A stretch of DNA of 32,000 nt from contig RQZE01000006.1 in the NCBI GenBank assembly GCA_003858585.1, forward strand, positions 90,001 through 122,000, written 5' to 3'. Positions within the stretch are counted from its first letter, which is position 1; each line of letters starts with the position of its first letter. Origin of the DNA: Erysipelotrichaceae bacterium OH741_COT-311 (GTDB lineage Bacteria > Bacillota_I > Bacilli_A > Erysipelotrichales > Erysipelotrichaceae). The notes under the pieces were generated by a model. The model searched no databases and had not been told where the DNA came from. It saw only the letters and a list, made by a program, of their open reading frames with translations. Shown here piece after piece: positions 8,256 through 30,517 of the stretch. The position numbers and the translations under genes were made by a program.

Positions 8256-8436
8256 AGATTCTTTGTTATGCTATCTTGTTTCTAATAGATAGAAAAGTAG
8301 AATGTAAGTGAATATTGATGAATATTAAATTAATATATTTAAGGAAAGGAATAAAAGAAAAATGATAGTTAATATAAGCCTACAATGATATAATAGCAAC
8401 ATATAAAGGACTAATTTAAAATATATAATATTGATA

Positions 8437-8456
8437 AAAATGTATATAATTAATTA
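8437..8456. repeat. Left copy of an imperfect direct repeat flanking the nuclease islet
   Basis: AAAATGTATA-TAATTAATTA here matches AAAATGTATA-aag-TAATTAATTA at 9681-9703 (20 of 20 identical apart from a 3-nt indel). The AT-rich context makes a chance match possible. Confidence 0.3.
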
Positions 8457-8507
8457 CAAAAGATGAATACTATAGATTTACCCAAAATTTAAGGAGGGGG
8501 AATAAAC

Positions 8508-9560
8508 ATGTACAAGTCTCAGGCAAGAGGTCAATTACTTGAAATTGTTTTAGAAAAACTTATTGAAGTAAATGGATATAAAGTTATTAATGAAGGAGAA
8601 GATGTTGAGGAACAGAATAATGGCTTGAATGTTAGAGGACGTGGAGGCTTTCACCAATGTGACTCTCTTGGAGAATTTAAAATTACGCCACCATTCATGT
8701 ATCCATTAAGATTATTCGTTGAAGCTAAATTTTATGAAAAGGAAAAAGTTGGGATTGAAAAGGTAAGAATGGGTATTGGGATTCTACAAGATGTAAATAC
8801 TAATTATTCTACCTGTGACATGGATTATAATCAGCTAAATTTAACTAGATATGATTATCATTATGCGTTGTTTTCTACATCGGGATTCACGTTTCCTGCT
8901 CAAAGAATGGCTCTTGCACACAAAATAGGTTTAATTGATTTAAGTAATGGTCAACTTAGCTTTATAAAATCATTAATAAGAGACATTGTAAATTTATTAT
9001 TTGATAATGTTAATATTAGCGAGGGCGTGTTTAATCAATTTAAAAAAATTTTTAAGAATATTATAAATAACCATTTTGAAGACTATTCATGCAAATTATA
9101 TGAAATGTCTCGATTATTGGAAGATTCGTATTTTTTAAGTGATTTAGAAAGGTTAATAAATGATTTGGTTAATCAAATTCAAAATCAATCTATTTATCTT
9201 GCCAGTATAAGAAGTTCTCAAATAATAGCACTTATTCCAAAAAATAATGAAGATTTTAAATTGTCTCTTAAAAGAAATCCACATCAAAGCGTATCAATTA
9301 ATTGGGAAGACCATAATGGTGATTGGATTGTGAGACCAGAAGATCAATCGTATGAGTTAATTTTTAAATTACCTGAACTATTAGTTAGGGAGCTAAGTCA
9401 GAATTTAGAAAATATTGAAGCAAATTCAATGGCAATGAAAGAATCAGTACTAGCTACCATGAGTTTTGTTGCATACCTTGATAATCAAAATCCTACTTTA
9501 TGTACATTAAAATTTGATAAAGAAATGACACTGGGAAATATTAATCGATTTAATACTTAA
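8508..9560 (+). CDS. Mrr-cat-type PD-(D/E)XK restriction-endonuclease-like protein with an unknown C-terminal domain
   Basis: The elements appear in Mrr-cat order: GQLLEIVLEKLIEVNGYKV, then HQCDSLGEF (catalytic D), then LFVEAKFY (E-x-K), then ALFSTSGFTFPAQRMALAHKIGLIDLS. The following about 200 aa carry no motif I recognise. There is a strong SD (AAGGAGGGGG) and the gene is monocistronic. Confidence 0.6.
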   Translation: MYKSQARGQLLEIVLEKLIEVNGYKVINEGEDVEEQNNGLNVRGRGGFHQCDSLGEFKITPPFMYPLRLFVEAKFYEKEKVGIEKVRMGIGILQDVNTNYSTCDMDYNQLNLTRYDYHYALFSTSGFTFPAQRMALAHKIGLIDLSNGQLSFIKSLIRDIVNLLFDNVNISEGVFNQFKKIFKNIINNHFEDYSCKLYEMSRLLEDSYFLSDLERLINDLVNQIQNQSIYLASIRSSQIIALIPKNNEDFKLSLKRNPHQSVSINWEDHNGDWIVRPEDQSYELIFKLPELLVRELSQNLENIEANSMAMKESVLATMSFVAYLDNQNPTLCTLKFDKEMTLGNINRFNT

Positions 9561-9680
9561 CAAATTTTAATAATATATAAAATGTTGTCTCAACTTCTAA
9601 TGAGTTGTAATTAAAATGATATATAGCCTAAAAGATAGATGAAATATTCTTTTTGTATATAATTTGTTAGCGTATTTTTT

Positions 9681-9703
9681 AAAATGTATAAAGTAATTAA
9701 TTA
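9681..9703. repeat. Right copy of the imperfect direct repeat flanking the nuclease islet
   Basis: See the left copy at 8437-8456. Confidence 0.3.
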
Positions 9704-9921
9704 TAAGTTCATGTCTTATCATTGAAACTTGTGTAATTATGAAGAATAATAATCATTAATAAATTTAGATGAGTGTGGTAGCTCTTATTGCAACAGGTAT
9801 TGCTTATGGGATTATTGTGTTTTTCTGTTAGTTTAAAATCAAAGATAATTATATTTTAAGTAAAGAATATTTTTTATAATAGAATTATTTTATGAAAGAA
9901 GTATTGTCTTAAGGAGTTATT

Positions 9922-10424: not shown

Positions 10425-10468
10425 AATAGGATAAGAGTGTGATAAAATAGGGATATAGAGGTAACGAT

Positions 10469-10804
10469 ATGGCATCAAGCAAAGAATACTTAGAGTTTAT
10501 TTTGGAACAACTTTGTGATTTAGAAGATGTTAGCTATCGTTTTATGATGGGTGAATATGTTTTGTATTACAAAGGTAAAATTTTTGGTGGCATTTATGAT
10601 AATCGCTTTTTGGTAAAACCAGTGCCAGCTGCCATTCAATATGTCTCAAAGATAGAGTATGCCTTACCTTATAAAGGTGGTAAAGAGATGTTGTTGGTGG
10701 ATAATATAGATGATAAAACATATTTAGGTGGGCTAATAACTGCTATGTATGATGAGTTACCTGTTTTAAAAATAAAGCAACGTGAAAAAAAGAGAAATGA
10801 TTGA
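10469..10804 (+). CDS. TfoX/Sxy N-terminal domain protein
   Basis: YLEFILEQL...VSYRFMMGEYVLYYKGKIFGGIYDNRFLVK matches the TfoX_N pattern. The protein is 111 aa. Confidence 0.65.
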   Translation: MASSKEYLEFILEQLCDLEDVSYRFMMGEYVLYYKGKIFGGIYDNRFLVKPVPAAIQYVSKIEYALPYKGGKEMLLVDNIDDKTYLGGLITAMYDELPVLKIKQREKKRND

Positions 10805-10832
10805 GACGTGTCAAAGTATTGGGTGGTGAGGT

Positions 10833-11396
10833 ATGAATACATATATTGATATTACAGATGTTGTGCTTAAGACAAATCGTTTAACACTTCGTCCTTTTCA
10901 TCAAGAGGATTTAGAAGATTTCTATCAGTATGCTTCTGTGGATGGAGTAGGACAAATGGCGGGATGGAGACCTCATTCTAGTAAAGAAGAAACACAGGCT
11001 ATACTAGATTCTTTTGTAAAGAAGAAAAAAACATTTGCTTTAGAATATCAAGGAAAGGTGATCGGATCACTTGGGATTGAAGAATATAATGTAGAAAAAT
11101 TTCCCGAATTTAACGATAAAAAATGTCGACAACTTGGTTTTGTTCTTGCGAAAGAACATTGGGGGAAAGGATTTATGGTAGAGGCGGTAAATGAAGTTCT
11201 GTGCTATCTTTTTGAAGATATTGGATTAGATCTCATCTTATGTGGGTATTTTTTAAAAAATAAACAGTCACAAAGAGTACAAGAAAAATGTGGGTTTCAA
11301 CCATATAGAAAGAGTATGCATCAAACTGAGATGGGTGATATTGAAGAAAGCGTGGATAATATATTACGTAAAGAGGAATGGAAACAAAATAACTAG
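10833..11396 (+). CDS. GNAT N-acetyltransferase, RimJ/RimL-like
   Basis: The LTLRPFHQEDLEDFYQY opening and LGFVLAKEHWGKGFMVEAV motif A are typical of the Acetyltransf_3/RimJ subgroup. Confidence 0.75.
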   Translation: MNTYIDITDVVLKTNRLTLRPFHQEDLEDFYQYASVDGVGQMAGWRPHSSKEETQAILDSFVKKKKTFALEYQGKVIGSLGIEEYNVEKFPEFNDKKCRQLGFVLAKEHWGKGFMVEAVNEVLCYLFEDIGLDLILCGYFLKNKQSQRVQEKCGFQPYRKSMHQTEMGDIEESVDNILRKEEWKQNN

Positions 11397-11496
11397 CTTG
11401 TTTCAATCATATTGATAGAACTGGAAAAATGAATTTAAAATGAGAAGAAATCATAGGAAATGCATTTCTATAACATAAGTATATATGGAGGTAATT

Positions 11497-12120
11497 ATGA
11501 GAAGTGGACATGTTATTTATAAAGTAAATGATTTACAACAAGCGGTGCAAGAGTGGAGAAGCAAAGGCTTTGAAGTTGAGTATGGAAGAAAGAAAAATCC
11601 GATTAATGCAATCATATATTTTAGTGAAGGGGCTTATATTGAACTGCTACAGAATACCGGCATGCCTAAAATTGTAAAGTTGTTAAGTAAAATTTTTGGT
11701 TCAAATAAGAAAATGGAACGCTTTCATTACTGGGATACATGTAAAGAAGGGTTATGTGGATTTTGTATTGAAAAGGATTTTGGAAGTTTAGATGAAGAAG
11801 TGGCATTTTTAAAGAAAAATGGTATAGATGGAGTATTATTTAATCATTTAAAACGCATTGATACAAAAGATAGAGAATTACAATACAGATGTTTTTTTCC
11901 GGAGGGCATCGATTTTCCTTTTTTAATGAGTTATTTTAGTGTTGATCCTAAACCGAAGAATTTTATACATCCAAATGGAGTGAAAAAAATCAAGAAGATT
12001 GTTTTTAAGATCGATGAACATCATGCGAATATTTTAAAACAATTGGTAAAAGATGATACTCTTGAAATTATAGCTGATGAGAAAGAAAAAGGCATTGTCC
12101 ATATTGAATATGAAAAGTAA
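11497..12120 (+). CDS. Glyoxalase-like (VOC superfamily) domain protein
   Basis: GHVIYKVNDLQQAVQEWRSKGFEVEYG...YIELL resembles the Glyoxalase_3 N-terminal beta-alpha-beta module. I chose the ATG at 11497 behind GGAGG. Confidence 0.5.
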   Translation: MRSGHVIYKVNDLQQAVQEWRSKGFEVEYGRKKNPINAIIYFSEGAYIELLQNTGMPKIVKLLSKIFGSNKKMERFHYWDTCKEGLCGFCIEKDFGSLDEEVAFLKKNGIDGVLFNHLKRIDTKDRELQYRCFFPEGIDFPFLMSYFSVDPKPKNFIHPNGVKKIKKIVFKIDEHHANILKQLVKDDTLEIIADEKEKGIVHIEYEK

Positions 12121-12151
12121 ATAGGGAGGGTAAGGATAGGGGATAAAATCA

Positions 12152-12778
12152 ATGTTTAATATTAAATACATGGGATATTATAAGGAAGAGACTCAATTAA
12201 TAAATGGTGCCGCACTTCCTATTAACGCAGTACAATTTAAAGAGGGAGATAACTTAAGTAGTATTTTTATTTTTGGTGCTATGGTAGGAATGCCATTTAT
12301 ATTAAGTATGATTCTTTTCGCTTATTTTAAAATGAAAGAAGTAAATTATGGATATACCTTTGAGCTAAATAGTGTAACTATTATAACCTATCTTGTAACA
12401 TGTTTTTTAATGGTTGCCTTGTTGTTTGTCCATGAGTTTATTCATGCTATTTTATTTCCTTTAAAAGCAGAGAAAACAATATGGTTTTATCCTCAACAAG
12501 GAGCTTTGTTTGTCTATTGCAATGCCTTGGTAAGTAAGATAAGATTTATTGTTATTTGTCTTGCGCCTGCGATGATTTTAGGTTTGATTCCCTTTGTGCT
12601 TTGGTATGTGTTTGCTAAACATATACAGATGCCCTATAGTTACGCTATAGTGGTTATATCTATTACAAATGTAGTGGCTTCTGTTGGAGATTTTGCAAAT
12701 GTGTATAATGCGATTCGACAAGTTCCTAAAGGGGCATACATATTTAACTATGGATTTCATTCTTTTTGGTTGAAATAA
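12152..12778 (+). CDS. DUF3267-like membrane protein (putative zincin, HExxH)
   Basis: HEFIHAILFP lies in a polytopic membrane protein of about 200 aa, the hallmark of DUF3267. Confidence 0.6.
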   Translation: MFNIKYMGYYKEETQLINGAALPINAVQFKEGDNLSSIFIFGAMVGMPFILSMILFAYFKMKEVNYGYTFELNSVTIITYLVTCFLMVALLFVHEFIHAILFPLKAEKTIWFYPQQGALFVYCNALVSKIRFIVICLAPAMILGLIPFVLWYVFAKHIQMPYSYAIVVISITNVVASVGDFANVYNAIRQVPKGAYIFNYGFHSFWLK

Positions 12779-12846
12779 TTAAGGGAAATAGAATTGTAAT
12801 ATCAAGAATGAGTAGACATTGGAAATTGAAAGTTTGGTAAGAAAAT

Positions 12847-13083
12847 ATGAATTGGACAATAAGAAATGTAATAAGTGGTGATGAAAAAGAGCTGGCTTAT
12901 ATACAAACAGAGAGTTGGAAGGAAGCCTTTAAACATATTCTTTCAGAAGAGTTACTTAAAATATATACAGATAAAAATCGTTCTATGAAGATGTACAAAC
13001 GCTTAATCGATGAAGGTATTGGACATGGATATATCTTAGAAGTAAACGGTAATCCTCATTGTATTGCATGGTGGGTTGCATAA
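12847..13083 (+). pseudogene. 5' half of a GNAT acetyltransferase gene interrupted by the mobile element
   Basis: The ORF reads ...GYILEVNGNPHCIAWW and then VA-stop as it enters element DNA. It lacks the acetyl-CoA motif, which is found in the 18830-19105 fragment. Confidence 0.75.
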
Positions 13084-13132
13084 TATTAACTGAACAGGAG
13101 TGATATATAGACACAAAAAGGAGGATAAAGCA

Positions 13133-14971
13133 ATGATGGAATATGCAACCAAAATCACTGCGCTATACTCCCGCCTTTCAGTTGGTGATGAGGATAGGGA
13201 TGGTGGGGAAAGCAACAGTATCGTTAATCAAAAGGCATTCTTAGAACGGTATGCAAAACAGCATAAGCTGATGAACATTCGCCACTATATCGACGATGAT
13301 GAAAGCGGTCGCTTCTTTGACCGTAATGCTTACACACAGATGATAAGCGATGTGGAAAACGGTAAAATCGGCATAGTCATTATGAAAGATATGACAAGGT
13401 GGGGACGAGATTATCTTCAAGTTGGGAACGCTATGGAGATATTCAGAAGAAACAATGTACGCTTTATTGCCATCAACAACGGCATTGACAGCAAAGACCA
13501 AAATACATTGGAATTTGCCCCTTTTATCAATATTATGTCGGAGTGGTACGCAAGGGATATCAGTAAGAAAGTCAAAACAGGCATTAAGACCAAAGGAGCA
13601 AGCGGAAAGCCTGTCGCAACAGAAGCCCCGTACGGCTATATCAAAGACCCTGAGAACAAAGATTATTGGATCGTCGATAAAGAAGCTGCCGAAGTGGTAA
13701 AACTCATTTTTACGCTTTTTATGGAGGGGAAAAATAGAAATCAGATAGCCGTTTATTTGAAAGAAAAAGAAATACTAACCCCAACCTTTTATATGAAACA
13801 GCAAGACAGAGGAACCGCAAAAAGCAGAACACTCAATGAAGAAAATCGCTATAACTGGAACAAAGCAACCCTAACACGCATACTGCAAAGGCAGGAGTAT
13901 TGTGGCGATGTAGTCAACTTCAAAACCGAAAAGCATTACAAAGACAAGCGAAACCACTATGTCGATAAAGATAAGTGGCAAATCACCCCCGATGTGCATG
14001 AGCCAATCATCGACCGAGCCACCTATGAAAATGTACAGCGGATATTAAAAAATGCACCGGTAAAAAGACCGAACGGAGATGGAGAAATCCACCCATTATC
14101 GGGATTGATGTACTGTAAAGATTGCGGTACGAAAATGCACATTCGCACCATACACAAGAATAATAAAATACAGCATGTAACCTATTGTAGCGAATATGCC
14201 AAAGGCAAAGCCAAGCACCCGAAATGCCATTCCCCACATCGCATTGATGTCGATGATGTCATGGAAACGCTCAAAGAGATTTTACGAAAGATAGGCAAGT
14301 TTTCATTCACAAACAAATCAGAGTTTGAAGCATTGGTAAAAAACAGTCTTGCCAAAGAACAGACCGAAGAAGTAGGGAAACAAAAAAATCGTATCCCACA
14401 AATCACAGATAGATTGGAACAGATAGAAAGAGTGATGAATAAACTGTATGAAGATAACGCACTGGGAAATATCGAGCCGAAACGCTATGAACAACTATCG
14501 GGGAAATATGCAGAAGAATATTACAGCTTAAAAGCGGAACAGGAGCAAATAGAAGAACGCTTATCCGAATTTGAAAATGCCAACCAAAGAGCCAAGAATT
14601 TTATAAGGCTTGCTGAAAGCTACTCAGACTTTGAAGAACTTACCCCCACTGCTATCAATGAATTTATCAGTAAAATAGTAGTGCATGAGCGAGATGTCAA
14701 AAGAGCAAAATATGCCGTTCAGCGAATCGAAGTCTATTTCAACTATATCGGAAAATTTGAAAATGAACTCACAAAACAGATCGAGCCGACAGAACAGGAA
14801 ATGATACAGATGAGAGAAGAAATCGAAGAAGCTAAGAAAGAAAAAGCACGAGCATATCGTAGGGAATATTACAAAGAATACCGAGCCAAAAATATTGAAA
14901 AATGCCGAGAGTATGAAAAAGTAAAGGCAAGAGAGTATAGAGCAAAAAAGAAGCTACAAGCAACAACCTAA
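13133..14971 (+). CDS. Large serine recombinase (integrase/excisionase of the element)
   Basis: The resolvase-domain opening is KITALYSRLSVGDEDRDGGESNSIVNQ (catalytic Ser in YSRLS). A recombinase domain, a Zn-ribbon (CKDCGTKMH...YCSEY...KCH) and a long C-terminal coiled coil follow. The ATG at 13133 follows AAAGGAGGA. Confidence 0.9.
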   Translation: MMEYATKITALYSRLSVGDEDRDGGESNSIVNQKAFLERYAKQHKLMNIRHYIDDDESGRFFDRNAYTQMISDVENGKIGIVIMKDMTRWGRDYLQVGNAMEIFRRNNVRFIAINNGIDSKDQNTLEFAPFINIMSEWYARDISKKVKTGIKTKGASGKPVATEAPYGYIKDPENKDYWIVDKEAAEVVKLIFTLFMEGKNRNQIAVYLKEKEILTPTFYMKQQDRGTAKSRTLNEENRYNWNKATLTRILQRQEYCGDVVNFKTEKHYKDKRNHYVDKDKWQITPDVHEPIIDRATYENVQRILKNAPVKRPNGDGEIHPLSGLMYCKDCGTKMHIRTIHKNNKIQHVTYCSEYAKGKAKHPKCHSPHRIDVDDVMETLKEILRKIGKFSFTNKSEFEALVKNSLAKEQTEEVGKQKNRIPQITDRLEQIERVMNKLYEDNALGNIEPKRYEQLSGKYAEEYYSLKAEQEQIEERLSEFENANQRAKNFIRLAESYSDFEELTPTAINEFISKIVVHERDVKRAKYAVQRIEVYFNYIGKFENELTKQIEPTEQEMIQMREEIEEAKKEKARAYRREYYKEYRAKNIEKCREYEKVKAREYRAKKKLQATT

Positions 14972-14995
14972 AACCAAATATCAACCAAGCAAAAG

Positions 14996-15026
14996 AGGTT
15001 TCCGAAGTACAGGAAATCTTTTTTTG
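14996..15026 (+). terminator. Rho-independent terminator after the recombinase gene
   Basis: AGGTTTCC (14996-15003), an 8-nt loop, GGAAATCT (15012-19) with one G-U pair, followed by TTTTTTT. Confidence 0.6.
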
Positions 15027-15047
15027 TGCAAGTAAAAGGAGGATTAA

Positions 15048-15230
15048 ATGACCGAAAAACAAAAACCACAGACCAACGAAGAACAAGCGACACACCGAAA
15101 ACCTGATGGCATTCTAACAAAAAAGATGAATGGAAAGACCTTTGTAACAGAAATATATTTTGATAAAAAGAGCAAGGATACCTTTCAAGATAAGCTGTTA
15201 AAGATAGTGCAAGCCCAGCGGAAAGAATAA
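15048..15230 (+). CDS. TnpW-like small transposon-encoded protein
   Basis: 60-aa ORF behind AAAGGAGGA. KKMNGKTFVTEIYFDKKSKDTFQDKLLKIV resembles the small TnpW proteins of Tn4451-type elements (R.G.TtY.V.v.Fs..skEt..DKi..Li), as I recall them. Confidence 0.4.
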   Translation: MTEKQKPQTNEEQATHRKPDGILTKKMNGKTFVTEIYFDKKSKDTFQDKLLKIVQAQRKE

Positions 15231-15336
15231 ATAAAACAAACACTTTGTATTTTGCTTCTCCGTGCTTTTCAATCTGTTCCTATGAAAAACACGAAAGCAA
15301 GCAGAAAATCCGACAGTGGAAAAAATGCCCTCAAAA

Positions 15337-15345
15337 TGGTATAAT
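15337..15345 (+). promoter_or_regulatory. Extended -10 promoter (TGGTATAAT) of cargo cassette 1
   Basis: TGGTATAAT lies 65 nt upstream of the ATG at 15410. It is embedded in a about 40-nt block repeated upstream of the second cargo gene. Confidence 0.5.
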
Positions 15346-15409
15346 ATTGATAAACAATTAGAGAAACAAGTTTGAATTTATTGAGATGAACTTTGGGAGA
15401 GGTATTAAG

Positions 15410-15931
15410 ATGGGTGGGGTTTGGCTATTGCTAATATTCTTAACTGTAAGATTTGGTTTGTTTTCTATCATAAAAAAAGAAGCTATACAGCGAGCAGGAT
15501 ATTTTGCTCCAATACAAAAATCTGAAAAAGTAGCATATTACATCTACCAAGTATCTAATATAGCATTATTAATATGCGTGATGGTATCATCAGTAAAAAT
15601 TGATTTTTCTCTTCAATTTTATTTAGGCTTATCGCTCTTTTTGGTAGGTATATTATTATGTGCAATTTCAGTTGTGTGTTTTGCTTTCCCGAATGATGAG
15701 GGGTTAAATACCAATGGTATTTATAAATTTTCAAGAAATCCGATGTATGTGGCTTATTTTGTTTGCTTCTTAGGGATGTCTTTATTAATACAGTCATTAA
15801 TCATGTTGGTAATGGTGTTAATCTTCCAGATTTCTGCTCATTGGATTATTGTATCGGAAGAAAGATGGTGTTTAGAAAAGTTCGGAAAAAGCTATGAAGA
15901 TTATACAAAAAAGGTTCGACGATACATTTAA
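15410..15931 (+). CDS. ICMT/PEMT-like membrane methyltransferase family protein (cargo 1)
   Basis: A polytopic membrane protein with GIYKFSRNPMYVAYFVCFLGMSL, the G.Y...RNPMY signature of the isoprenylcysteine carboxyl / phospholipid methyltransferase family. The ATG at 15410 follows GGGAGAGG. Confidence 0.6.
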   Translation: MGGVWLLLIFLTVRFGLFSIIKKEAIQRAGYFAPIQKSEKVAYYIYQVSNIALLICVMVSSVKIDFSLQFYLGLSLFLVGILLCAISVVCFAFPNDEGLNTNGIYKFSRNPMYVAYFVCFLGMSLLIQSLIMLVMVLIFQISAHWIIVSEERWCLEKFGKSYEDYTKKVRRYI

Positions 15932-15987
15932 ACTATCTCCTCGTTTGTTGGAGTGAAGTAAACAAAAGCTATAACATGACAATTCAC

Positions 15988-16030
15988 GAAACAGTAAATT
16001 AAATCGGTTTACTGTTTTTTTATTGCTCAA
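15988..16030 (+). terminator. Cassette-1 terminator, copy A of a conserved 43-nt module
   Basis: AAACAGTAAA (15989-98), a 9-nt loop, TTTACTGTTT (16008-17) as a perfect 10-bp stem, then a T-run and the conserved tail TTGCTCAA. It is repeated at 18734-18775. Confidence 0.7.
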
Positions 16031-16054
16031 AATCAAGAAGAAAGGACAAGGAAA

Positions 16055-16375
16055 ATGAAAAATATAGAAGAAAAGATTTTAATGGCAGAAGAAGAAATCA
16101 AGCAGTTACGAAACAAAAGAAAAAAGCTCATCAGTCAGCAGAAAGAGGAGGAACGAAAAAAGAGAGATAGACGGCTTTATGAAAAAGGAGGAGTATTTGA
16201 AAGTATCTTTACTGAAAGCAAAGAATTAACCAAAGATGAATTTTATCAGCTCATAAGTTCTCTAAATCATAAAGAAGAAATCCGACAAAAAATCAAGAAA
16301 ATCATAGCTAAGCGAGAAGAAAACGAAAACCAAAATATAGAAACACAAGAGGAAGTAACGGACATCGGGGAATAG
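16055..16375 (+). CDS. DUF3847-like relaxosome accessory protein
   Basis: A 106-aa basic coiled-coil protein (EEEIKQLRNKRKKLISQQKEEERKKRDRRLYEKGGVFESIF) lying immediately upstream of the oriT-like region and relaxase. This pattern and position are typical of DUF3847. Confidence 0.5.
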   Translation: MKNIEEKILMAEEEIKQLRNKRKKLISQQKEEERKKRDRRLYEKGGVFESIFTESKELTKDEFYQLISSLNHKEEIRQKIKKIIAKREENENQNIETQEEVTDIGE

Positions 16376-16560
16376 TCCCTTGTTTACAAGGGTGCACTTA
16401 TACACCCTAAAGGGTGTGTGCGTTCTCCGAAGGCTCTTGCAGAGAGCATATCAGCTAAACGCTGATACAGGGGAGCTACACTCCCCTACGGAAATAAATT
16501 TCCTACCCCTTGTGTACTTCCCAAAAGAAATCGGATAAAAAGCAATTCGATTTTTTTAGG
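16376..16560 (+). other. Candidate oriT: dense cluster of short inverted repeats
   Basis: Inverted repeats: CCCTTG/CAAGGG (16377-92), AGGGTG..CACCCT (16389-16408), GCTCT/AGAGC (16433-47), TATCAGC/GCTGATA (16449-67), GGGGAG/CTCCCC (16470-86), GGAAAT/ATTTCC (16490-16503) and AAATCG/CGATTT (16528-53). Direct repeats: AGGGTG (16389, 16411) and CCCTTGTnTAC (16377, 16507). The region lies between the accessory gene and the relaxase gene. Confidence 0.5.
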
Positions 16561-16616
16561 AAGTCTTATCCATCGCCACATCAAAGTATCAGAACAACGA
16601 AAGGGGGTTTTCTCTT

Positions 16617-18077
16617 ATGGCAATATATCATCTCAGTATCAAAATTATCTCAAGAGGCAAAGGCAAGAGTGCAGTTGCAGCTTCCGCCTATCGAAGTGGC
16701 GAAAAGATAAAAAATGAGTATGACGGCATAGTCCATGACTTTACAAGAAAAGGAGGAATCGCCCATACCGAAATTCTATTACCACAAAATGCACCACAGG
16801 AGTTTTTGGACAGGGGAACATTATGGAATAGCGTGGAGAAAATCGAAAAAAGTAAAAACTCACAGCTTGCAAGAGAAATAGAAATCGCCTTACCCAAAGA
16901 ATTAAACCGAGAAAAACAGATAGAACTTGTACGAGAATATGTAAAAGAAAATTTTGTGAAAGTCGGTATGTGTGCCGATATTGCCTTACACGACAAAAAT
17001 GACAGAAACCCACACGCACATATCCTATTAACAATGCGACCGTTAAACGAAGATACAACATGGGGAGCAAAATCAAAAAAAGAATATATCCTTGATGAAA
17101 ACGGAGAAAAAGTAAAACTCAAAAATGGCAATTACAAAACCAAAAAAATCAATATAGTCGATTGGAATGAGCAAGAAAAAGCGGAAGAGTGGCGAAAAGC
17201 ATGGGCAGATATTACCAACAAATATTTGGAAGAAAACAATATACAGGAAAAAGTGGATCACCGTTCTTATCAAAGACAAGGAATAGAACAAATACCGACT
17301 ATTCATTTAGGAGTATCGGCAACACAAATGGAAAAGAAAGGCATAGACACAGACAGAGGAAATATCAACAGAGAAATCAGAAAACAGAATAGGCTATTAC
17401 AGGAAATAAAGTTAAGAATAAAAGCCTTACTAAATTGGATAAGAGGAATTGGAAAAGAAGAAAAGGCAGAAACTGAAAATATCAAATCAGCCCTCCCATC
17501 CAAAGAAAATCTATTGTCAGTTTTTGAAAATCTTATCCGTAAAAATGCAGATAACCATAATACAGATTTAGAGCAATACATCGAAAGCTATCAATTCTTA
17601 AAAGAGAACAATATCATTTCTGTATCTGAACTGAAAGAAAACATAGTTACTTTAAGAGATAAGAACTACAAGACCACAAGAGCTATTAAAGATACTGAAA
17701 AGCAGATTGATGATAGAGTACAGCTTATCGACCACGCCGAAAAATATTTGAAGCATAAAGACACCTATAAAGCCTATATCAAGCTGAAGAAAAACAAACA
17801 AGATATTTTCTACAATGAACATACCGCAGAGATTATTTTATTTGAAAGTGCGAAGAAATATTTGAAAGAACATTTAGGAGAAAGCAAGTCCTTAACTATA
17901 TCTAAATGGAAATCGGAAGTAACCGCCTTGAAGAAAGAAAAAGACAGTCTGTATTCTCAAATCATAGACCTACGGAAAGAAGTGGAACAAGCAGAAAGTG
18001 TAAGAAGCTGTATAGAGAAATTACAACAAGAAAACAGAGAAATAACACAGGTTAAGAAGCAAGAATTAGACCTGTAA
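16617..18077 (+). CDS. MobA/MobL family (MOBQ-type) relaxase
   Basis: MAIYHLSIKIISRGKGKSAVAASAYRSGEKI carries the catalytic Tyr motif and HDKNDRNPHAHILLTMRP is the HxDxxxPHxH histidine triad. A long coiled-coil C-terminus follows. Confidence 0.9.
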   Translation: MAIYHLSIKIISRGKGKSAVAASAYRSGEKIKNEYDGIVHDFTRKGGIAHTEILLPQNAPQEFLDRGTLWNSVEKIEKSKNSQLAREIEIALPKELNREKQIELVREYVKENFVKVGMCADIALHDKNDRNPHAHILLTMRPLNEDTTWGAKSKKEYILDENGEKVKLKNGNYKTKKINIVDWNEQEKAEEWRKAWADITNKYLEENNIQEKVDHRSYQRQGIEQIPTIHLGVSATQMEKKGIDTDRGNINREIRKQNRLLQEIKLRIKALLNWIRGIGKEEKAETENIKSALPSKENLLSVFENLIRKNADNHNTDLEQYIESYQFLKENNIISVSELKENIVTLRDKNYKTTRAIKDTEKQIDDRVQLIDHAEKYLKHKDTYKAYIKLKKNKQDIFYNEHTAEIILFESAKKYLKEHLGESKSLTISKWKSEVTALKKEKDSLYSQIIDLRKEVEQAESVRSCIEKLQQENREITQVKKQELDL

Positions 18078-18092
18078 AACTAATTGAAAATA

Positions 18093-18101
18093 TGGTATAA
18101 T
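18093..18101 (+). promoter_or_regulatory. Extended -10 promoter (TGGTATAAT) of cargo cassette 2
   Basis: This is the same TGGTATAATAT block as at 15337, lying 34 nt upstream of the ORF start at 18135. Confidence 0.5.
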
Positions 18102-18134
18102 ATAACAAACAGCGAGTAAAACAAATTAGAAGTT

Positions 18135-18695
18135 GTGGAGGTGAAAATTATAGATACTTCAAAATTCTCATGGAATGAGTTTGAACAAAATTTGTTTCAA
18201 GATGGAAAGTGGGAAATACCATCAAAGTACAAAATTAAAATAAATGATTCATCAGAGAAAAGATACAAATTAGAGATGATTTTATATAAGATGTCTCACA
18301 AATATGTAGCAAGATGGGCATTAGAAAATGCTCAAGCGTTCTTATCTTTTATAGAGATTGGTGATAAAGAGTTAAAGGAATCAATCATGTGTGAAACAAC
18401 AGCGGTATTAAATATGCGTATTGACGGGAAATCAAGTGCGTATAAACTGAGAAACGCTGGATTTTTAGCGAATAAATTAGGACAAATGTCAATTAATGAT
18501 TTAAGTAAATATTCTGCAAGAGTATTTGCACAATCCATAGCAACTGGTCATATGAGAGGACATGCTATTGTATCATCTGATTATGCTATTAAAGTTATTA
18601 ATATTTTATTCCCTAATGATAATTTAAAAGTCGAAGAAGAAAGAAATCGGCAAATTGAATTAGCGAATAAAATTATAAAGGAATATGATATTTAA
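18135..18695 (+). CDS. Imm5-like (putative immunity protein family) helical-repeat protein (cargo 2)
   Basis: VARWALENAQAFLSFIE ... YKLRNAGFLANKLGQ ... ARVFAQSIATGHMRGHAIVSSDYAIKVINI resembles, from memory, the pattern of the putative immunity protein / Imm5-like family (VAR.AA..AE.VLP.FE ... AR.AG.A.A.aH...Ha...A.YA.KA). The start is ambiguous: GTG 18135, GTG 18141, or ATT 18147 behind GGAGGTG. Confidence 0.35.
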   Translation: MEVKIIDTSKFSWNEFEQNLFQDGKWEIPSKYKIKINDSSEKRYKLEMILYKMSHKYVARWALENAQAFLSFIEIGDKELKESIMCETTAVLNMRIDGKSSAYKLRNAGFLANKLGQMSINDLSKYSARVFAQSIATGHMRGHAIVSSDYAIKVINILFPNDNLKVEEERNRQIELANKIIKEYDI

Positions 18696-18733
18696 ACAAC
18701 TCCCGGTTTGTCTAATTGAATATAACAATTTGA

Positions 18734-18775
18734 GAAACAGTAAATCAAAAAGGTTTGCTGTTTTTTGTTGCTCAA
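18734..18775 (+). terminator. Cassette-2 terminator, copy B of the conserved module
   Basis: AAACAGTAAA (18735-44) pairs with TTTGCTGTTT (18754-63). The stem is the same as copy A with one A-to-G change that keeps a G-U pair. A T-run and the tail TTGCTCAA follow. Confidence 0.65.
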
Positions 18776-18829
18776 TTTTCAAAAAATCGTCCATAAATAT
18801 AAACAGGCACTTGACAAAACGCTCTCTGG

Positions 18830-19105
18830 GATAAAGCGCGAGATGAAGATATGTTTGGTTATGCGGAATTGATTTGCATTCATAGTATTTGTAATCAATG
18901 GAGAAAAGGCTATGGCACTAAATTAATGAGAAAAGTATTAGAGGATATGAAAGCGAAGGGGTATGATAAGGTACTACTTTGGGTATTTAGGGATAATTAT
19001 CAAGCACGTATGTTTTATGAAAAACTTGGCTTTTGTACTTTTGGTAAGATGAAAACCTATTTAAATACCGAAGAGATTTGTTATGAGAAAAAGTTAACTC
19101 TTTAG
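18830..19105 (+). pseudogene. 3' half of the interrupted GNAT acetyltransferase gene
   Basis: The frame is open back to 18815 and reads ..ALW|DKARDEDMFGYAELICIHSICNQWRKGYGTKLMRKVLEDM...VLLWVFRDNYQARMFYEKLGF (GNAT motifs A and B). It joins in phase to 12847-13074. Confidence 0.75.
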
Positions 19106-19138
19106 CTGAAAATATAGAGATAAAATTGGAGTCATTGT

Positions 19139-19657
19139 ATGGATGAAGTAAGATTGAAAAAATTACAACGTTATATTGGAAAAAGGTCACAGGGACAAAG
19201 TGATGAACAGGTTATGGCACATATTGAAAAAGAAATTGCAAAGTATGGCATTACACCGGAACAGTGGGCGAAATTATTGTTTCCACTTTGTGCCAATGCG
19301 GAATATCCCTTTTTTCTTTCATTATCTAAAAAAGCCAATTTAGAAGATATGGCAGAAACGTTAATCAGTCATACCGTACGTTTTCGTCAAAACAACATGG
19401 AAAAAGAACAGAATCAAGTGGCTATTGTAAAGCATCTTCTAAGTTATATTCCTGAAAAATGTAAACAGGAAGTGATAGATAGAGCACTTGGAACCTCTGC
19501 TTGGTTTGCAGAATATGAATTAACAAACTATCTTATCGAATGTGGGGCAAGCCTTCAAATGGTTTCCAATGGTCGCAGTTTATTAGAACTTGCAGAACAT
19601 GGCAAGAATCAATTTGAAGATGATAGAGTGTATAACTACATCAAAGATCGTATGTAG
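19139..19657 (+). CDS. Hypothetical protein
   Basis: 172-aa ORF, helical and soluble. I recognise no secure motif. Confidence 0.5.
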   Translation: MDEVRLKKLQRYIGKRSQGQSDEQVMAHIEKEIAKYGITPEQWAKLLFPLCANAEYPFFLSLSKKANLEDMAETLISHTVRFRQNNMEKEQNQVAIVKHLLSYIPEKCKQEVIDRALGTSAWFAEYELTNYLIECGASLQMVSNGRSLLELAEHGKNQFEDDRVYNYIKDRM

Positions 19658-19668
19658 TTGTTTGCTTA

Positions 19669-19697
19669 TTTGACTATTTTGTATATTGGTGTTAGAT
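19669..19697 (+). promoter_or_regulatory. Candidate sigma-A promoter of the mgtE leader
   Basis: TTGACT (19669-74), a 17-nt spacer, then TAGATT (19692-97). Confidence 0.4.
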
Positions 19698-19811
19698 TAA
19701 GGGTTAGTAGGAAGGAGTGATGATTTATGGATGAGATACCTAAGTCGATAAATACAATCATTACTTTTATACTACGGCTTAATGAATGATTCCTTAAGTA
19801 TTTTTAATTGA

Positions 19812-19837
19812 GCTGTCGTATAAACGATGGCTTTTTT
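19812..19837 (+). terminator. Leader (attenuator) terminator just upstream of the mgtE RBS
   Basis: GCTGTCGT (19812-19), loop ATAA, ACGATGGC (19824-31) forming an 8-bp stem with two G-U pairs, followed by TTTTTT. The SD AAAGGAGGA and the ATG at 19853 come next. Confidence 0.5.
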
Positions 19838-19852
19838 AAAGGAGGAATAGGC

Positions 19853-21184
19853 ATGGATATTAAAGAAATAAACGCTTTATTGCATCAAAAGAAATATAAA
19901 GAGGTGCATCAATTAACGTTAGATAGTAATCCTGTTGACTTGGCTGAATTACTAAATGAACTTGAAAAAGAAGAGCGTGGCTTATGTTTTCGTTTATTGG
20001 AAAAAGATAAGGCTGCAGAAGTTTTTTCGTATATGGATAATGATATAAGAAAGGCATTGTTAAAAACCTTATCCAGTCAAAATGTTGCGGAGTTATTTGA
20101 AGAGATGTATGTGGATGATGCGGTTGATTTTTTAGAAGATATGCCTAGTAATGTTATTACGAATTTATTAGATAACGTGGATATGAAAACACGTAATCAA
20201 ATCAATCAATTATTGCATTATTCGAAAGATAGTGCCGGTAGTATTATGACGGTTGAATTTATTGAATTATATCCAACGATGAGTGTAAAACAAGCACTTG
20301 ATAAAATTCGTCGTGTAGGAATAGATAGTGAAACCGTATATACTTGTTACGTGGTTGAAAAGCGTAAGTGTTTAGGGATTGTAACAGCAAAGGACTTAAT
20401 GATTCATGATCCTGAAACAAAGATTGAATCGCTGATGAAGAAAGAATTTATTTATGCTCATACCCATGATGATCGAGAAGACATTGCCAATAAATTGCGT
20501 AAATATGGGCTAATCGCGATTCCTGTATTAGACGCAGAAGGGTGTATTGTGGGTATTGTAACTTTCGATGATGCGATTGATGTCTTAACAGATGAAACAA
20601 CAGAGGATATGCAAAAGATGGCAGCGATGATGGCTAATGATAAACCATATCTATCAACAAGTGTCTTGCAACATGCGTATAATCGCATCGGTTGGTTGTT
20701 GATTTTAATGTTATCAGCTACCATAACCGGAAGTATTATCAGCCGTTATGAACATGCGTTTGAGGTATTACCAATCTTGGTGTCATTTATACCGATGTTG
20801 ATGGATACCGGAGGAAATTGTGGATCACAAAGTTCAACCTTAGTTATTCGTGGTTTAGCCATCGATGAAATTAAATTTAAAGATATTTGGAAAGTGCTTT
20901 TTAAAGAATTTCGTGTTTCATTAGTTGTTGGTTGTGCTTTGGCATTGGCAAATGGTTTGCGTATTTTCTTCATTTACAAAGATCTTTCGCTGGCGATTGT
21001 AGTGGCAGTTTCATTGATGGCAACCATCGTAATTGCGAAAATTATTGGATGTTGCTTACCAATCTTAGCCAAGAAATTAAAGTTGGATCCGGCGATTATG
21101 GCTGCACCATTAATTACAACAATTGTGGATACTTGTTCTATTATGGTGTACTTTAGTATCGCTACGATTATTTTTAAGATATAA
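19853..21184 (+). CDS. mgtE: Magnesium transporter MgtE
   Basis: The protein has an MgtE N-domain, a CBS pair (SAGSIMTVEFIEL..., IAIPVLDAEGCIVGIVTFDD) and a TM domain with DTGGNCGSQSS. The ATG at 19853 follows a strong SD; the track start at 19808 lies inside the terminator. Confidence 0.92.
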   Translation: MDIKEINALLHQKKYKEVHQLTLDSNPVDLAELLNELEKEERGLCFRLLEKDKAAEVFSYMDNDIRKALLKTLSSQNVAELFEEMYVDDAVDFLEDMPSNVITNLLDNVDMKTRNQINQLLHYSKDSAGSIMTVEFIELYPTMSVKQALDKIRRVGIDSETVYTCYVVEKRKCLGIVTAKDLMIHDPETKIESLMKKEFIYAHTHDDREDIANKLRKYGLIAIPVLDAEGCIVGIVTFDDAIDVLTDETTEDMQKMAAMMANDKPYLSTSVLQHAYNRIGWLLILMLSATITGSIISRYEHAFEVLPILVSFIPMLMDTGGNCGSQSSTLVIRGLAIDEIKFKDIWKVLFKEFRVSLVVGCALALANGLRIFFIYKDLSLAIVVAVSLMATIVIAKIIGCCLPILAKKLKLDPAIMAAPLITTIVDTCSIMVYFSIATIIFKI

Positions 21185-21196
21185 GGAGTGGATAAA

Positions 21197-21274
21197 ATGA
21201 AACGAAAAGTAATTATTATGTTTGTTGTGATTTTAATGATGTTAACCTTAATTTCACCATTATTTAGAATGTAG
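21197..21274 (+). CDS. Possible 25-aa hydrophobic micropeptide
   Basis: MKRKVIIMFVVILMMLTLISPLFRM behind AAGGAG, starting 12 nt after the mgtE stop. It is too short for the ORF track and the coding status is unproven. Confidence 0.3.
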   Translation: MKRKVIIMFVVILMMLTLISPLFRM

Positions 21275-21292
21275 AATAGATGGTTGTTTTAT

Positions 21293-21568
21293 ATGGCACA
21301 GATATTAGTGATTGGGATTATTTTTTCAGTGGTAATGCTTTTTTTGGCTATATTTAAGTTTAAGCAACATTCTATTGCACTAGAATCAAGACTTGATGAA
21401 TTTGAAAAGAAGTATAAGCGAATGCATGCAGATTATCTTACTAAAGAAGAAATTGAATATTTAAAAGAATTAAAGCAAAATGGACAGACGATACAGGCGA
21501 TTAAGGAGTTAAGAAATCTAACATTTATGTCTTTGCTTGAAGCAAAAGAATATATAGATTATTTATAA
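21293..21568 (+). CDS. Membrane-anchored protein with a ribosomal L7/L12 C-terminal-like domain
   Basis: An N-terminal TM segment (ILVIGIIFSVVMLFLAIF) is present. The C-terminal QTIQAIKELRNLTFMSLLEAKEYIDYL resembles the L7/L12 CTD pattern K..vIK.vRe.TGLGLKEAKdlVd. Confidence 0.45.
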   Translation: MAQILVIGIIFSVVMLFLAIFKFKQHSIALESRLDEFEKKYKRMHADYLTKEEIEYLKELKQNGQTIQAIKELRNLTFMSLLEAKEYIDYL

Positions 21569-21634
21569 GAAAATTTGAGAAGGGAAAAGCCCAAAAACCA
21601 GTGATATAATAGAGTTATAAAGAAGAGATTAATC

Positions 21635-21930
21635 ATGAATCTTATGATTATAACGATATGCATCGTTTTACTTGGTGCTTTTTTCATGTTTTTAGGAGAT
21701 GTCGTTGTATTAAGGTAAAGATGGATTTGATGTTATAAATGCCAAAACTTCTATTATTGAAATCATGAAAAAAGTAGGAACAAAACGTTTATATAGGAGG
21801 ATTATTAGATTCTTCCTTTTACAAGGGGAGCATATAGACTATTGGTATTTATTTGCTTTCTGGTGCTTTGCTTGGGAAAGCGTGTAAGTATTTTGTAAAA
21901 AAATTACCACATAAAAACAGATTATTATAA
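21635..21930 (+). pseudogene. Decayed membrane-protein gene with multiple frame breaks
   Basis: Protein-like segments fall in three different frames: MNLMIITICIVLLGAFFMFLGDVVVLR*, KDGFDVINAKTSIIEIMKKVGTKRLY, IGGLLDSSFYKGSI* and TIGIYLLSGALLGKACKYFVKKLPHKNRLL*. No intact ORF exists in a 500-bp gap. Confidence 0.35.
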
Positions 21931-22031
21931 ACTTTTACCATCCTAGTGCCCAAAGACTGAAACCTGAAGAATTATTTGATCTTTTCTTAGAAATAATAAA
22001 GGATATAAAAAAATTAGAAAATATAAAATAA

Positions 22032-29071: not shown

Positions 29072-30517
29072 ATGAAAACAATAACAAGAGATTTATCACT
29101 ATTGATGGATTTTTATCAATTGACCATGGCAAACGGTTATTTTAAAGATGGCTTAAAAGATCAAGAGGTTATTTTTGAGATGTTTTTTCGTAGAGTGCCG
29201 GATGGCGGTGGTTTTGCGATTATGTGTGGCTTGCAACAAGTCATTGAATACATTAATCATTTAACATTTACGGATGAAGATATTACCTTTTTGCGTAATA
29301 AGCATCTGTTTGACGAAGCCTTTTTAGAATATCTAAAAAACTTTAAGTGCACCTTGGATATTTATGCGTTTAAAGAGGGCACACCGATTTTTCCAAATGA
29401 ACCGATTATTAAGGTTGTGGGGTCCATTATACAAGCACAGTTAATTGAAACGATGATTTTATTAACTGTCAATCATCAAAGTTTAATTGCGACAAAAGCC
29501 AATCGCATTGTGCGTAGTGCCGAAGGTAAAGTGGTGATGGAATTTGGAGCACGTAGAGCGCATGGGTATGATGCCGCTTTATATGGTGCAAGAGCGGCGT
29601 ATATTGGTGGTGTAAATAGTAGTGCTAACGTCTTATCTGATAAGCTGTTTGATATACCATCGGTTGGGACTATGGCTCATAGCTTTGTACAGTTATATCC
29701 GGATGAATATACTGCATTTAAAAAGTATTGTTGGATGTACCCAAATAATGCCAGTTTATTAGTAGATACCTATAATGTGTTAAAAAGTGGGGTTCCAAAT
29801 GCTATTTTGGTAGCGAAAGAGGTACTGCATCCAATGGGACAGCGTTTAAAAAGTATTCGTTTAGATAGTGGGGATTTAACTTATTTGTCTAAAAAAGCTC
29901 GTAAGATGTTGGATCAAGCCGGTATGCAGGATTGTAAGATTATCGTGTCAAATAGTTTGGATGAGTATATGATTCAATCATTATTGATTCAAGGGGCTTG
30001 TATTGATTATTTTGGGGTTGGAGAACGTTTGATTAGTGCCAAAAGTGAACCGGTTTTTGGTGGAGTTTATAAAATTGCGGCGGTTAAAGAAAATGGTAAG
30101 TTTGAACCACGCATTAAGATTAGTGAAAACATTGAAAAAATTACAACACCTGCTGATAAAGAGGTATATCGTCTCTATGATGAAAATCATAAGGCAATTG
30201 CGGATGTTTTGACCCTTAAAGATGAAGTCATTGATACAAGTAAGCCTTATACAATTTTTGATCCAATTAGTACGTGGAAGCGTAAAGAGTTAGTTAACTT
30301 TACGGTAGAGCCAATGTTGGTGCCAATCTTTATTAAAGGAAAACAAGTTTATCAAAGTCCAAGTGTAAGTGAAATACGAGAATACTGTATACAACAAGTT
30401 CAAACGTTATGGGAAGAGTCTTTGCGTTTTGAAAATCCGCATAATTACTATGTTGACTTGTCAAAGCCGTTATGGGATTTGAAACAAGAATTACTGGAAA
30501 GTAAGAACCAGCGATGA
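29072..30517 (+). CDS. pncB: Nicotinate phosphoribosyltransferase
   Basis: LLMDFYQLTMANGYF...FEMFFR...GTMAHSFVQ...IRLDSGDL are NAPRTase family motifs. I chose the ATG at 29072. Confidence 0.9.
   Translation: MKTITRDLSLLMDFYQLTMANGYFKDGLKDQEVIFEMFFRRVPDGGGFAIMCGLQQVIEYINHLTFTDEDITFLRNKHLFDEAFLEYLKNFKCTLDIYAFKEGTPIFPNEPIIKVVGSIIQAQLIETMILLTVNHQSLIATKANRIVRSAEGKVVMEFGARRAHGYDAALYGARAAYIGGVNSSANVLSDKLFDIPSVGTMAHSFVQLYPDEYTAFKKYCWMYPNNASLLVDTYNVLKSGVPNAILVAKEVLHPMGQRLKSIRLDSGDLTYLSKKARKMLDQAGMQDCKIIVSNSLDEYMIQSLLIQGACIDYFGVGERLISAKSEPVFGGVYKIAAVKENGKFEPRIKISENIEKITTPADKEVYRLYDENHKAIADVLTLKDEVIDTSKPYTIFDPISTWKRKELVNFTVEPMLVPIFIKGKQVYQSPSVSEIREYCIQQVQTLWEESLRFENPHNYYVDLSKPLWDLKQELLESKNQR

Follow-up and report, generated by a model that had tools for sequence, protein, structure and literature searches.

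An integrative mobilizable element whose relatives usually occupy coupling-protein genes interrupts a GNAT gene in an uncultured Erysipelotrichaceae bacterium

Integrative mobilizable elements (IMEs) of IME_Class_5 combine a serine integrase with a PF03389/MOBQ relaxase and carry no coupling protein (Coluzzi et al. 2017, PMC5357655). In the same study, “traG site 1” IMEs of 5.18-5.31 kb, including IME_ScoC1050_traG_site 1 (CP003859), IME_ScoC232_traG_site 1, and IME_Seq35246_traG_site 1 (records of the named elements also include CP003800 and CP002904), with integrases of the Ser_1 cluster (40% identity or more), and “traG site 2” IMEs of 12-15 kb were reported in Tn5252-superfamily integrative and conjugative elements (ICEs) of Streptococcus constellatus, S. 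anginosus, S. equi, and S. dysgalactiae. In C. difficile R20291, Tn6104 (ORFs 1744-1764) resides in a CTn5-like ICE with a 2-bp direct repeat, and its excision to a circle has been shown (Brouwer et al. 2011, PMC3158075); the gene that it occupies is traG/VirD4 (Guédon et al., PMC5704250). Tn4451 has a MobV relaxase and uses a GA target dinucleotide at many sites (PMC5704250), and the title of Lyras & Rood (2000), as cited in PMC13023037, states that the circular form of Tn4451/3 creates the tnpX promoter. Here, an element comparable to these systems is described from a 32,000-nucleotide stretch of the genome of Erysipelotrichaceae bacterium OH741_COT-311 (contig RQZE01000006.1, positions 90,001 to 122,000; “the window”), where it divides a gene for a GNAT acetyltransferase.

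The insert at 13074-18828 (5755 bp, equivalent to 13075-18829) is an intact IME and a further member of an already described IME family. Its position in the GNAT gene makes it an off-target copy of that known, extremely widespread family of ICE-parasitic IMEs. Considered as a whole, the element is in all likelihood an intact IME of traG-site-1-type architecture that entered a GNAT pseudo-attB by exchange at a TG dinucleotide.

The interrupted GNAT gene and its empty sites

An earlier note on this DNA, made from the sequence alone, read the open reading frame (ORF) at 12847-13083 as the N-terminal half of a GNAT protein, ending ...HCIAWW and then VA-stop, and placed the C-terminal half in the frame of 18851-19105, open from 18815. 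Both readings were confirmed. The N-terminal frame reads ...NGNPHCIAWW, runs two codons (VA) into the element, and stops at TAA 13081-13083; the C-terminal frame reads QNALW-DKARDEDMFGYAEL..QWRKGYGTKLM, in which QWRKGYGTKLM is GNAT motif A, and this piece alone matches GNAT Pfam families (PF00583, E = 3e-12). TGG occupies the identical codon phase at the left and right junctions, attL and attR (13072-13074 and 18827-18829). When 12847-13074 (codons 1-76, the host arm of attL) is joined to 18830-19105 (codons 77-167 plus stop, the host arm of attR), the 504 nt form the predicted 167-codon GNAT ORF, uninterrupted by a stop and with a PF00583 match over residues 43-144.

A search of about 5.8 billion proteins with the joined ORF returned 1403 homologues. 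The closest natural one (P0001) is also 167 aa long and shows 98% identity at 100% length coverage, and more than 100 other listed intact GNATs (162-190 aa) are 57-68% identical. The sequence PHCIAWWD(K/T)ARD is continuous across the junction position in five of five intact homologues read. The contig that encodes the closest homologue (L001) has the same neighbors as the window, namely, Glyoxalase_3, DUF3267, GNAT, a 172-aa ORF, and MgtE, and by blastn window 10468-13075 corresponds to L001 6443-9050 and window 18827-21808 to L001 9047-12029. The two therefore differ here by an exact 5755-bp insertion, with TGGG (4 bp) common to attL, attR, and the empty site. A second empty site, with the same 4-bp overlap, was found in L086 (GCA_030532865.1, an Erysipelotrichaceae metagenome-assembled genome [MAG]); both empty sites belong to the same uncultured Erysipelotrichaceae species and have syntenic flanks. 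The repaired attB reads …ATTGCATGGTG|GGATAAAGCGCG….

The earlier note had named, as what would undo its split-gene reading, fragments aligning to nonadjacent regions or the lack of an intact allele. The fragments proved to be adjacent and an intact allele was found, which rules out two independent small GNAT genes; the two “small GNAT-like ORFs” are pieces of a single interrupted gene. An assembly chimera is likewise ruled out by the presence of the same insertion in independent samples: L002, assembled independently (SRR9701139), has the occupied site at 100% identity over 15,485 bp.

The GNAT slot itself is a small variable locus, independent of the IME. In two other strains of the species (L084, 7801-8268, and L085, 2274-2741), an unrelated NUDIX hydrolase gene lies between the DUF3267 gene and the 172-aa ORF in place of the GNAT gene, which is therefore dispensable or accessory in the species. 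Further strain-level indels distinguish the window from L001. Window 8270-9768 does not align with L001 and holds a 350-aa ORF (8508-9560; no Pfam match) where L001 has ∼0.5 kb, and at 21808-21967, also without alignment, L001 has ∼1.1 kb (with a 240-aa ORF) versus 160 bp in the window.

Usual target, crossover site, and relatives

Relatives were scanned with one genome per species, and 80 of the 202 loci with relatives were kept, with recombinases 72-94% identical to that of the window. Clade 1 (recombinases 87-94% identical) comprises Peptoniphilus, Anaerococcus, Johnsonella, Eubacterium brachy, Ezakiella, Streptococcus constellatus, S. massiliensis, and others, and clade 2 (72-75% identical) is mostly from mouse-gut Lachnospiraceae and related Clostridia. 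The left junction was readable in 73 loci, and in 64 of these (88%) it falls in one codon, YGSAR-W|G, of a gene for a VirD4-type coupling protein of the CD1115 family. The canonical left junction is …GA(G/A)TA(T/C)GGnTCnGCnCGn-TG, coding …EYGSAR-W, and canonical right junctions go on GGG…, coding G-N-x-K-D-I-x-P-Y. Excision in silico at one such locus (L040) restores a 600-aa ORF that scores 581 bits against NCBIfam conju_CD1115 (cut-off, 250) and matches Pfam T4SS-DNA_transf and TraG-D_C. To one side of this gene lie RepA_N, DnaC-like, and DUF3801 genes and to the other TrbL/VirB6-like and VirB4-like genes; in this one flank looked at, the gene thus has an ICE context. The remaining 9 of the 73 junctions (∼12%), together with those of the window and of locus L087, lie in unrelated sequences. 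The family is strongly site specific for the coupling-protein gene, with about one off-target insertion per eight sequenced copies. The earlier note could not see that the GNAT gene is a secondary site and not the element's normal home.

The 2-bp core cannot be placed from the window alone because attL, attR, and attB share TGGG, and attP (the joint of the excised circle) and attB show too little dyad symmetry about any candidate core to locate the crossover. Comparison of 73 attL and 43 attR sites places it at TG (13072-13073 in attL and 18827-18828 in attR). In clade 2 attL sites, the bases after TG are AG, GA, or GG, and they must derive from the element because TGA cannot belong to the Trp codon of traG. 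In the four off-target elements with readable right junctions, the attR bases after TG are TC, AA, CC, and GA and are thus target derived. The base 5′ of the T is A, C, G, or T in B arms versus C in P arms. These junction sequences together indicate that TG is the dinucleotide exchanged.

A position weight matrix of the canonical attB was built from 56 distinct left arms and 34 distinct right arms. With this matrix, the GNAT site ranks second among 3177 TG sites on both strands of the repaired window, 3.2 standard deviations over the mean and ∼90 bits under genuine attB sites. It shares with the canonical attB the positions GCA.G.TGGG.AA..C….GAT…GA. This profile fits a weak, secondary pseudo-attB captured by a site-specific recombinase; its rank and score disfavor both random TG transposition and a second dedicated target.

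The ∼12% of junctions in unrelated sequences that share little beyond TG, and the numerous GA sites of Tn4451 (PMC5704250), could be taken to indicate a low-specificity transposon in the strict Tn4451 sense, recognizing TG only, whose apparent preference for coupling-protein genes reflects hitchhiking of already-occupied ICEs. This is very improbable: the same codon is used in coupling-protein genes that diverge at synonymous and neighboring positions, in hosts of many genera, and by two recombinase clades only 72-75% identical to each other, and the site used in the window is the second most attB-like of all its TG sites. The precise in-frame restoration of the GNAT ORF on excision and the co-orientation of element and gene would also suit a programmed, reversible GNAT switch, as in skin/sigK and “active lysogeny,” and conditional excision was proposed for IMEs in conjugation genes (Coluzzi et al., PMC5357655). 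Such a switch can be set aside almost entirely, in that the GNAT gene is accessory (some strains have it intact, and others have a NUDIX gene in its place), no GNAT gene is hit by any of the 73 other junctions, and the GNAT-attL pattern, used to look for insertions in other taxa, was unmatched in JGI metagenomes.

The relatives also include nested insertions. A second, different serine-recombinase element lies ∼1.1 kb deeper in the same coupling-protein gene at five loci (L005, e.g., 16564-16753, L022, L026, L028, and L038), so that one coupling-protein gene can hold two nested hitchhikers. In L005 and L024, the restored ORF of this gene breaks after …KKYKLAAG. These second elements could correspond to the “traG site 2” IMEs that Coluzzi et al. 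described.

Gene content, putative oriT, and candidate junction promoter

Six intact, co-oriented ORFs fill the insert, and the constituents of a serine-recombinase IME claimed in the earlier note (recombinase, relaxase, accessory gene, and oriT) are all present; as it also held, the element contains no gene for a coupling protein or a type IV secretion system. The first ORF (13133-14971) encodes a TnpX-like large serine recombinase of 612 aa. Its ATG at 13133 lies 58 nt from 13075, the distance given in the note, and is preceded by a ribosome binding site, AAGGAGG, at 13118-13124. Resolvase, recombinase, zinc ribbon, and DUF4368 domains are recognized (PF00239, E = 5.8e-24; PF07508, PF13408, and PF14287 all over cut-offs). 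The best PDB match of the catalytic domain is TnpX of Tn4451 (2MHC; E = 3e-29; 62 of 114 residues, or 54%, identical). LYSRLS aligns with LYERLS of TnpX, and Ser16 corresponds to the Ser of the YERLS motif, the nucleophile in TnpX. SPbeta integrase structures (9DXH) align to residues 57-521. The protein belongs to a cluster of 939 members at no less than 90% identity, among them proteins labeled Streptococcus equi and a truncated one labeled Pasteurella canis, and its genome matches include bins labeled Alloscardovia, Fusobacterium, Riemerella, Desulfovibrio, and Proteobacteria; these bin labels point to a very broad host range or else to contaminated MAGs.

The recombinase gene is followed by a gene for a 60-aa TnpW-family protein (15048-15230), and a homologous segment lies 3′ of the recombinase gene in the clade 1 relatives read to that point. 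No counterpart of TnpV or TnpY was annotated among the six ORFs. Downstream are genes for a 106-aa DUF3847 protein, presumed to be a relaxosome accessory (16055-16375), and for a 486-aa MOBQ relaxase (16617-18077). The relaxase matches MobA_MobL/MobQ profiles (NCBIfam MobQ, 286 bits; cut-off, 200), with no Mob_Pre match, and its domain aligns with NES (PDB 4HT4; E = 7e-37) and with RSF1010 MobA (PDB 2NS6). Its Tyr25 falls opposite position 25 of NES, which is Phe in chain 4HT4, and its HDKNDRNPHAH motif opposite HKINEENPHAH.

These genes form a backbone into which two cargo slots are set. Clade 1 elements have the order recombinase and tnpW, slot 1, DUF3847 with oriT and relaxase, slot 2, and right end, and the 24 complete ones measure 5.2-8.5 kb. 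In the window, profile matches identify a membrane methyltransferase of the PEMT/ICMT family in slot 1 (181 aa; 15386-15931) and an Imm5-like putative immunity protein in slot 2 (186 aa; 18135-18695). Relatives of the latter at 90% identity or above are labeled Streptococcus minor and Treponema phagedenis. The PADLOC library gave no defense-system match among the cargo or small proteins. Among the relatives, slot 1 of L028 (Urinicoccus massiliensis) holds an Lsa-family ABC-F ribosomal protection protein (798 bits; cut-off, 750), and that of L029 (Kallipyga massiliensis) holds a type A chloramphenicol acetyltransferase, catA (324 bits; cut-off, 270). Further cargo comprises an EamA transporter, GNATs, glyoxalase/bleomycin resistance-like proteins, methyltransferases, and DJ-1/PfpI.

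The right edge of each slot is marked by a copy of a 48-nt direct repeat consisting of an AT-rich hairpin and a T-run (copy 1, 15973-16020; copy 2, 18719-18766; 81% identical), and in the relatives backbone homology restarts exactly at these repeats (∼15956-15992 and ∼18719-18736). The repeat may be a terminator that was duplicated and shields the backbone, or it may take part in the exchange of cargo. A generic promoter/terminator scan of the integrated element was at background (22 promoter-like sites versus 22.2 expected); it misses AT-rich hairpins and is not counted as evidence.

The putative oriT (16376-16616, minus strand) occupies the noncoding DNA between the DUF3847 and relaxase genes. 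It contains a candidate MOBQ nick motif, TAAGTGCACCCT, at 16389-16400 on the minus strand, for which 0.09 chance matches were expected, and the inverted repeat ACACCC-TTTA-GGGTGT lies immediately 5′ of the motif on the same strand. The published MOBQ oriT consensus is NWACCNNTAAGTGCGCCCTYNN (PMC3832669), and the Gram-positive nick consensus is NcgtNtaAgtGCGCcCTta (PMC10333310). As judged by sequence matching, the nick consensus TAAGTGCGCCCT adjoins an inverted repeat in the window element as in MOBQ systems. The region folds as single-stranded DNA with a z score of −7.1 against shuffled sequences, and five hairpins are predicted. Its DNA is conserved in a distant relative, L044 (83% over 16376-16449), and on a C. 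perfringens plasmid (84% over 16392-16594). In the plasmid collection, megablast with the whole element gave a single 200-bp match, to the oriT region of that plasmid, and the protein search found recombinases only, at 44% identity or less (TndX, 33%), ruling out a known plasmid-borne transposon.

Two further observations concern the nick motif. A copy with one mismatch (TAAGTGCACCTT) lies at window 29344-29355, far outside the element, and is probably due to chance. In L087 (4552-8350; also L089 and L090, with seven similar places), a family member sits off target beside prophage genes, between terminase and head genes and tail genes. There, homology to the window stops 6 nt past the predicted nick position, the relaxase gene is gone, and a tyrosine integrase gene is next; the truncation may be at or near nic.

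The two ends of the element each carry one half of a candidate promoter. The left end (13074-13132), which forms the right arm of attP, has a −10 hexamer, CATAAT, at 13079-13084, starting 5 nt after TG; the right end (18767-18826), which forms the left arm of attP, has a −35 hexamer, TTGACA, at 18811-18816, with its last base 10 nt before TG. The two are assembled as TTGACA-17 nt-CATAAT, directed into the recombinase gene, in the excised circle only, at the joint …TTGACAAAACGCTCTCTG|GGTTGCATAATATT…. The offset of CATAAT is the same in 76 of 77 left ends, in both clades. TTGACA is found in 44 of 44 right ends, but the pattern used to retrieve these ends specified TTGACA, and the count therefore shows that its position is fixed, not that it is independently conserved. 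Target sequence takes the −35 position in integrated copies, AGTATG-like at the usual site and TCATTG in the GNAT gene. In the window and in every traG insertion read, the recombinase gene has the same orientation as the interrupted gene and begins 59 bp past the crossover; the integrated recombinase gene can therefore be transcribed by read-through. From these arrangements, we infer that read-through and the junction promoter work as proposed below.

Proposed mechanism and comparison with known systems

In the proposed cycle, the recombinase would have exchanged strands at TG between attP and a site in the chromosomal GNAT gene of the uncultured Erysipelotrichaceae bacterium. Once integrated, the recombinase gene would have no −35 hexamer of its own and would rely on read-through from the interrupted gene. 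Precise excision by the recombinase would then release the element as a circle and restore the target ORF, and the circle would join TTGACA and CATAAT with a 17-nt spacer into a strong recombinase promoter that favors reintegration. The MOBQ relaxase and the DUF3847 protein would nick oriT on the minus strand at a motif of the TAAGTGCACC|CT type, and export would be performed by the coupling protein and type IV secretion system of a coresident conjugative element. The two variable slots would carry small cargo along, here the membrane methyltransferase and Imm5-like protein and in relatives genes including lsa-type ABC-F and catA. Excision, promoter activity, nicking, and mobilization at present, and the availability of a helper ICE, are what we infer for this copy.

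Several points weigh against the element being a functional IME of traG-site-1 type. No gene for a coupling protein or type IV secretion system lies within the 32-kb window, and a helper may therefore be absent. The attP junction, circular or tandem, was found in none of 83 loci, the JGI metagenome contigs, or IMG/VR, a null that says little either way, since such joints seldom survive in assemblies. In other samples, the 78-aa and 84-aa GNAT fragments occur as three and four sequence variants, with five intact 167-aa variants beside them, and several split-allele variants suggest stable vertical inheritance and not frequent excision. Both the nick site and the junction promoter are consensus matches. 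Finally, assignment to the “traG site 1” IMEs follows architecture, size, and the family target gene, with the named elements compared by description and the YGSAR-W|G codon a candidate for “site 1” of that paper.

Some of these points would also suit a stranded, effectively immobile copy that landed once in a poor pseudo-site, excises negligibly from a noncognate B arm, has no helper, and is decaying. The deficit of ∼90 bits relative to the canonical attB, the fragment variants suggesting inheritance within the lineage, the missing attP in the collections searched, the lack of conjugation genes in the window, and the existence of truncated relatives, such as L087 without its relaxase, are all in keeping with it. 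Against it stand the six intact ORFs, the retention of the aligned catalytic Ser, Tyr, and His positions, the intactness of both ends and both promoter hexamers, and the membership of the recombinase in its cluster of 939 close relatives; moreover, serine recombinases act on P- and B-derived half-sites that have already recombined once. A stranded copy is accordingly judged unlikely, and an intact IME in a pseudo-attB remains the favored interpretation.

A broader proposal, offered tentatively and with more doubt than confidence, is that the family is a transcriptionally wired ICE parasite. Induction of the conjugation operon would drive excision and repair of the coupling-protein gene, and the junction promoter would drive reintegration; landing in a pseudo-attB would be an escape route that allows persistence without an ICE, wired in this case to the host GNAT promoter. 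Excision triggered by induction of conjugation, or conditional excision of IMEs in conjugation genes, was proposed in general terms by Coluzzi et al. (PMC5357655). As far as we found, the specific circuit of read-through and split promoter has not been described for such IMEs.

For specialists, the result is well explained and unsurprising and does not overturn current understanding. With it, six genes and an oriT can be annotated as a single mobile unit, and a little-studied IME family gains a concrete attP, a TG crossover, and a consensus attB in a VirD4 gene. It also defines two cargo slots, which already hold lsa-type and catA resistance genes in anaerobic cocci, and offers a testable regulatory design, with read-through for the integrated state and a junction promoter for the excised one. 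Such IMEs inactivate the coupling protein of the ICE by inserting into its gene and can therefore decide whether an ICE transfers at all. A serine integrase that is site specific and whose natural spectrum of pseudo-sites is known is also of some interest for genome engineering.

Compared with MOBQ systems (NES of the pLW1043/pSK41 type, 4HT4; RSF1010 MobA, 2NS6), the window element has the relaxase Tyr25 and the HxDxxxxNPHxH metal site in alignment and, similarly, an inverted repeat directly 5′ of TAAGTGC(A/G)CCCT. Unlike the MOBQ plasmid systems, it is chromosomal and without a replicon, its accessory protein is DUF3847 and not a recognized MobC/RHH protein, and its oriT lies between the accessory and relaxase genes with the nick motif on the opposite strand.

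The earlier note had likened the element to Tn4451/Tn4453. This analogy stands for the recombination module (a TnpX-like enzyme with a DUF4368 tail, TnpW, and the junction promoter) and fails for the MOBQ relaxase, the absence of TnpV/TnpY, the TG core, and the site specificity. Common to both are a 2-bp crossover and the lack of a mating apparatus, with mobilizability predicted for the window element. To judge from the hexamers, a recombinase promoter would span the circle joint as in Tn4451, and a relative, L029, carries a type A cat gene. The window element has a MOBQ relaxase with an RSF1010/pIP501-type nick motif, whereas that of Tn4451 is MobV (PMC5704250), and it combines a TG core with high target specificity, compared with the GA core and many sites of Tn4451.

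Tn6104 shares with the window element a TnpX-related large serine recombinase and a mobA/mobL relaxase, and it sits in an ORF of an ICE conjugation module. It is larger (15.6 kb, 21 ORFs, and a TnpV homologue, versus 5.75 kb, six ORFs, and TnpW without TnpV), and its cargo of regulators, an ABC transporter, sigma factors, and a toxin-antitoxin pair is unlike that of the window element.

The window element has the features that define IME_Class_5. With the “traG site 1” IMEs it shares a single serine integrase, an ∼490-aa PF03389/MOBQ relaxase, and the lack of a coupling protein, and their sizes are 5.2-5.3 kb, compared with 5.2-8.5 kb in the family of the window element. The window copy differs in its cargo and in lying within a GNAT gene of an Erysipelotrichaceae chromosome. 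The VirD4-type traG of ICEs in which the “traG site 1” IMEs reside is the site of 64 of the 73 relatives, including that of S. constellatus (L008). Two proxies would be in line with kinship to these IMEs in sequence: the S. constellatus L008 recombinase, located at the traG site, is 92% identical to that of the window, and a protein of S. equi falls in the same 90% cluster.

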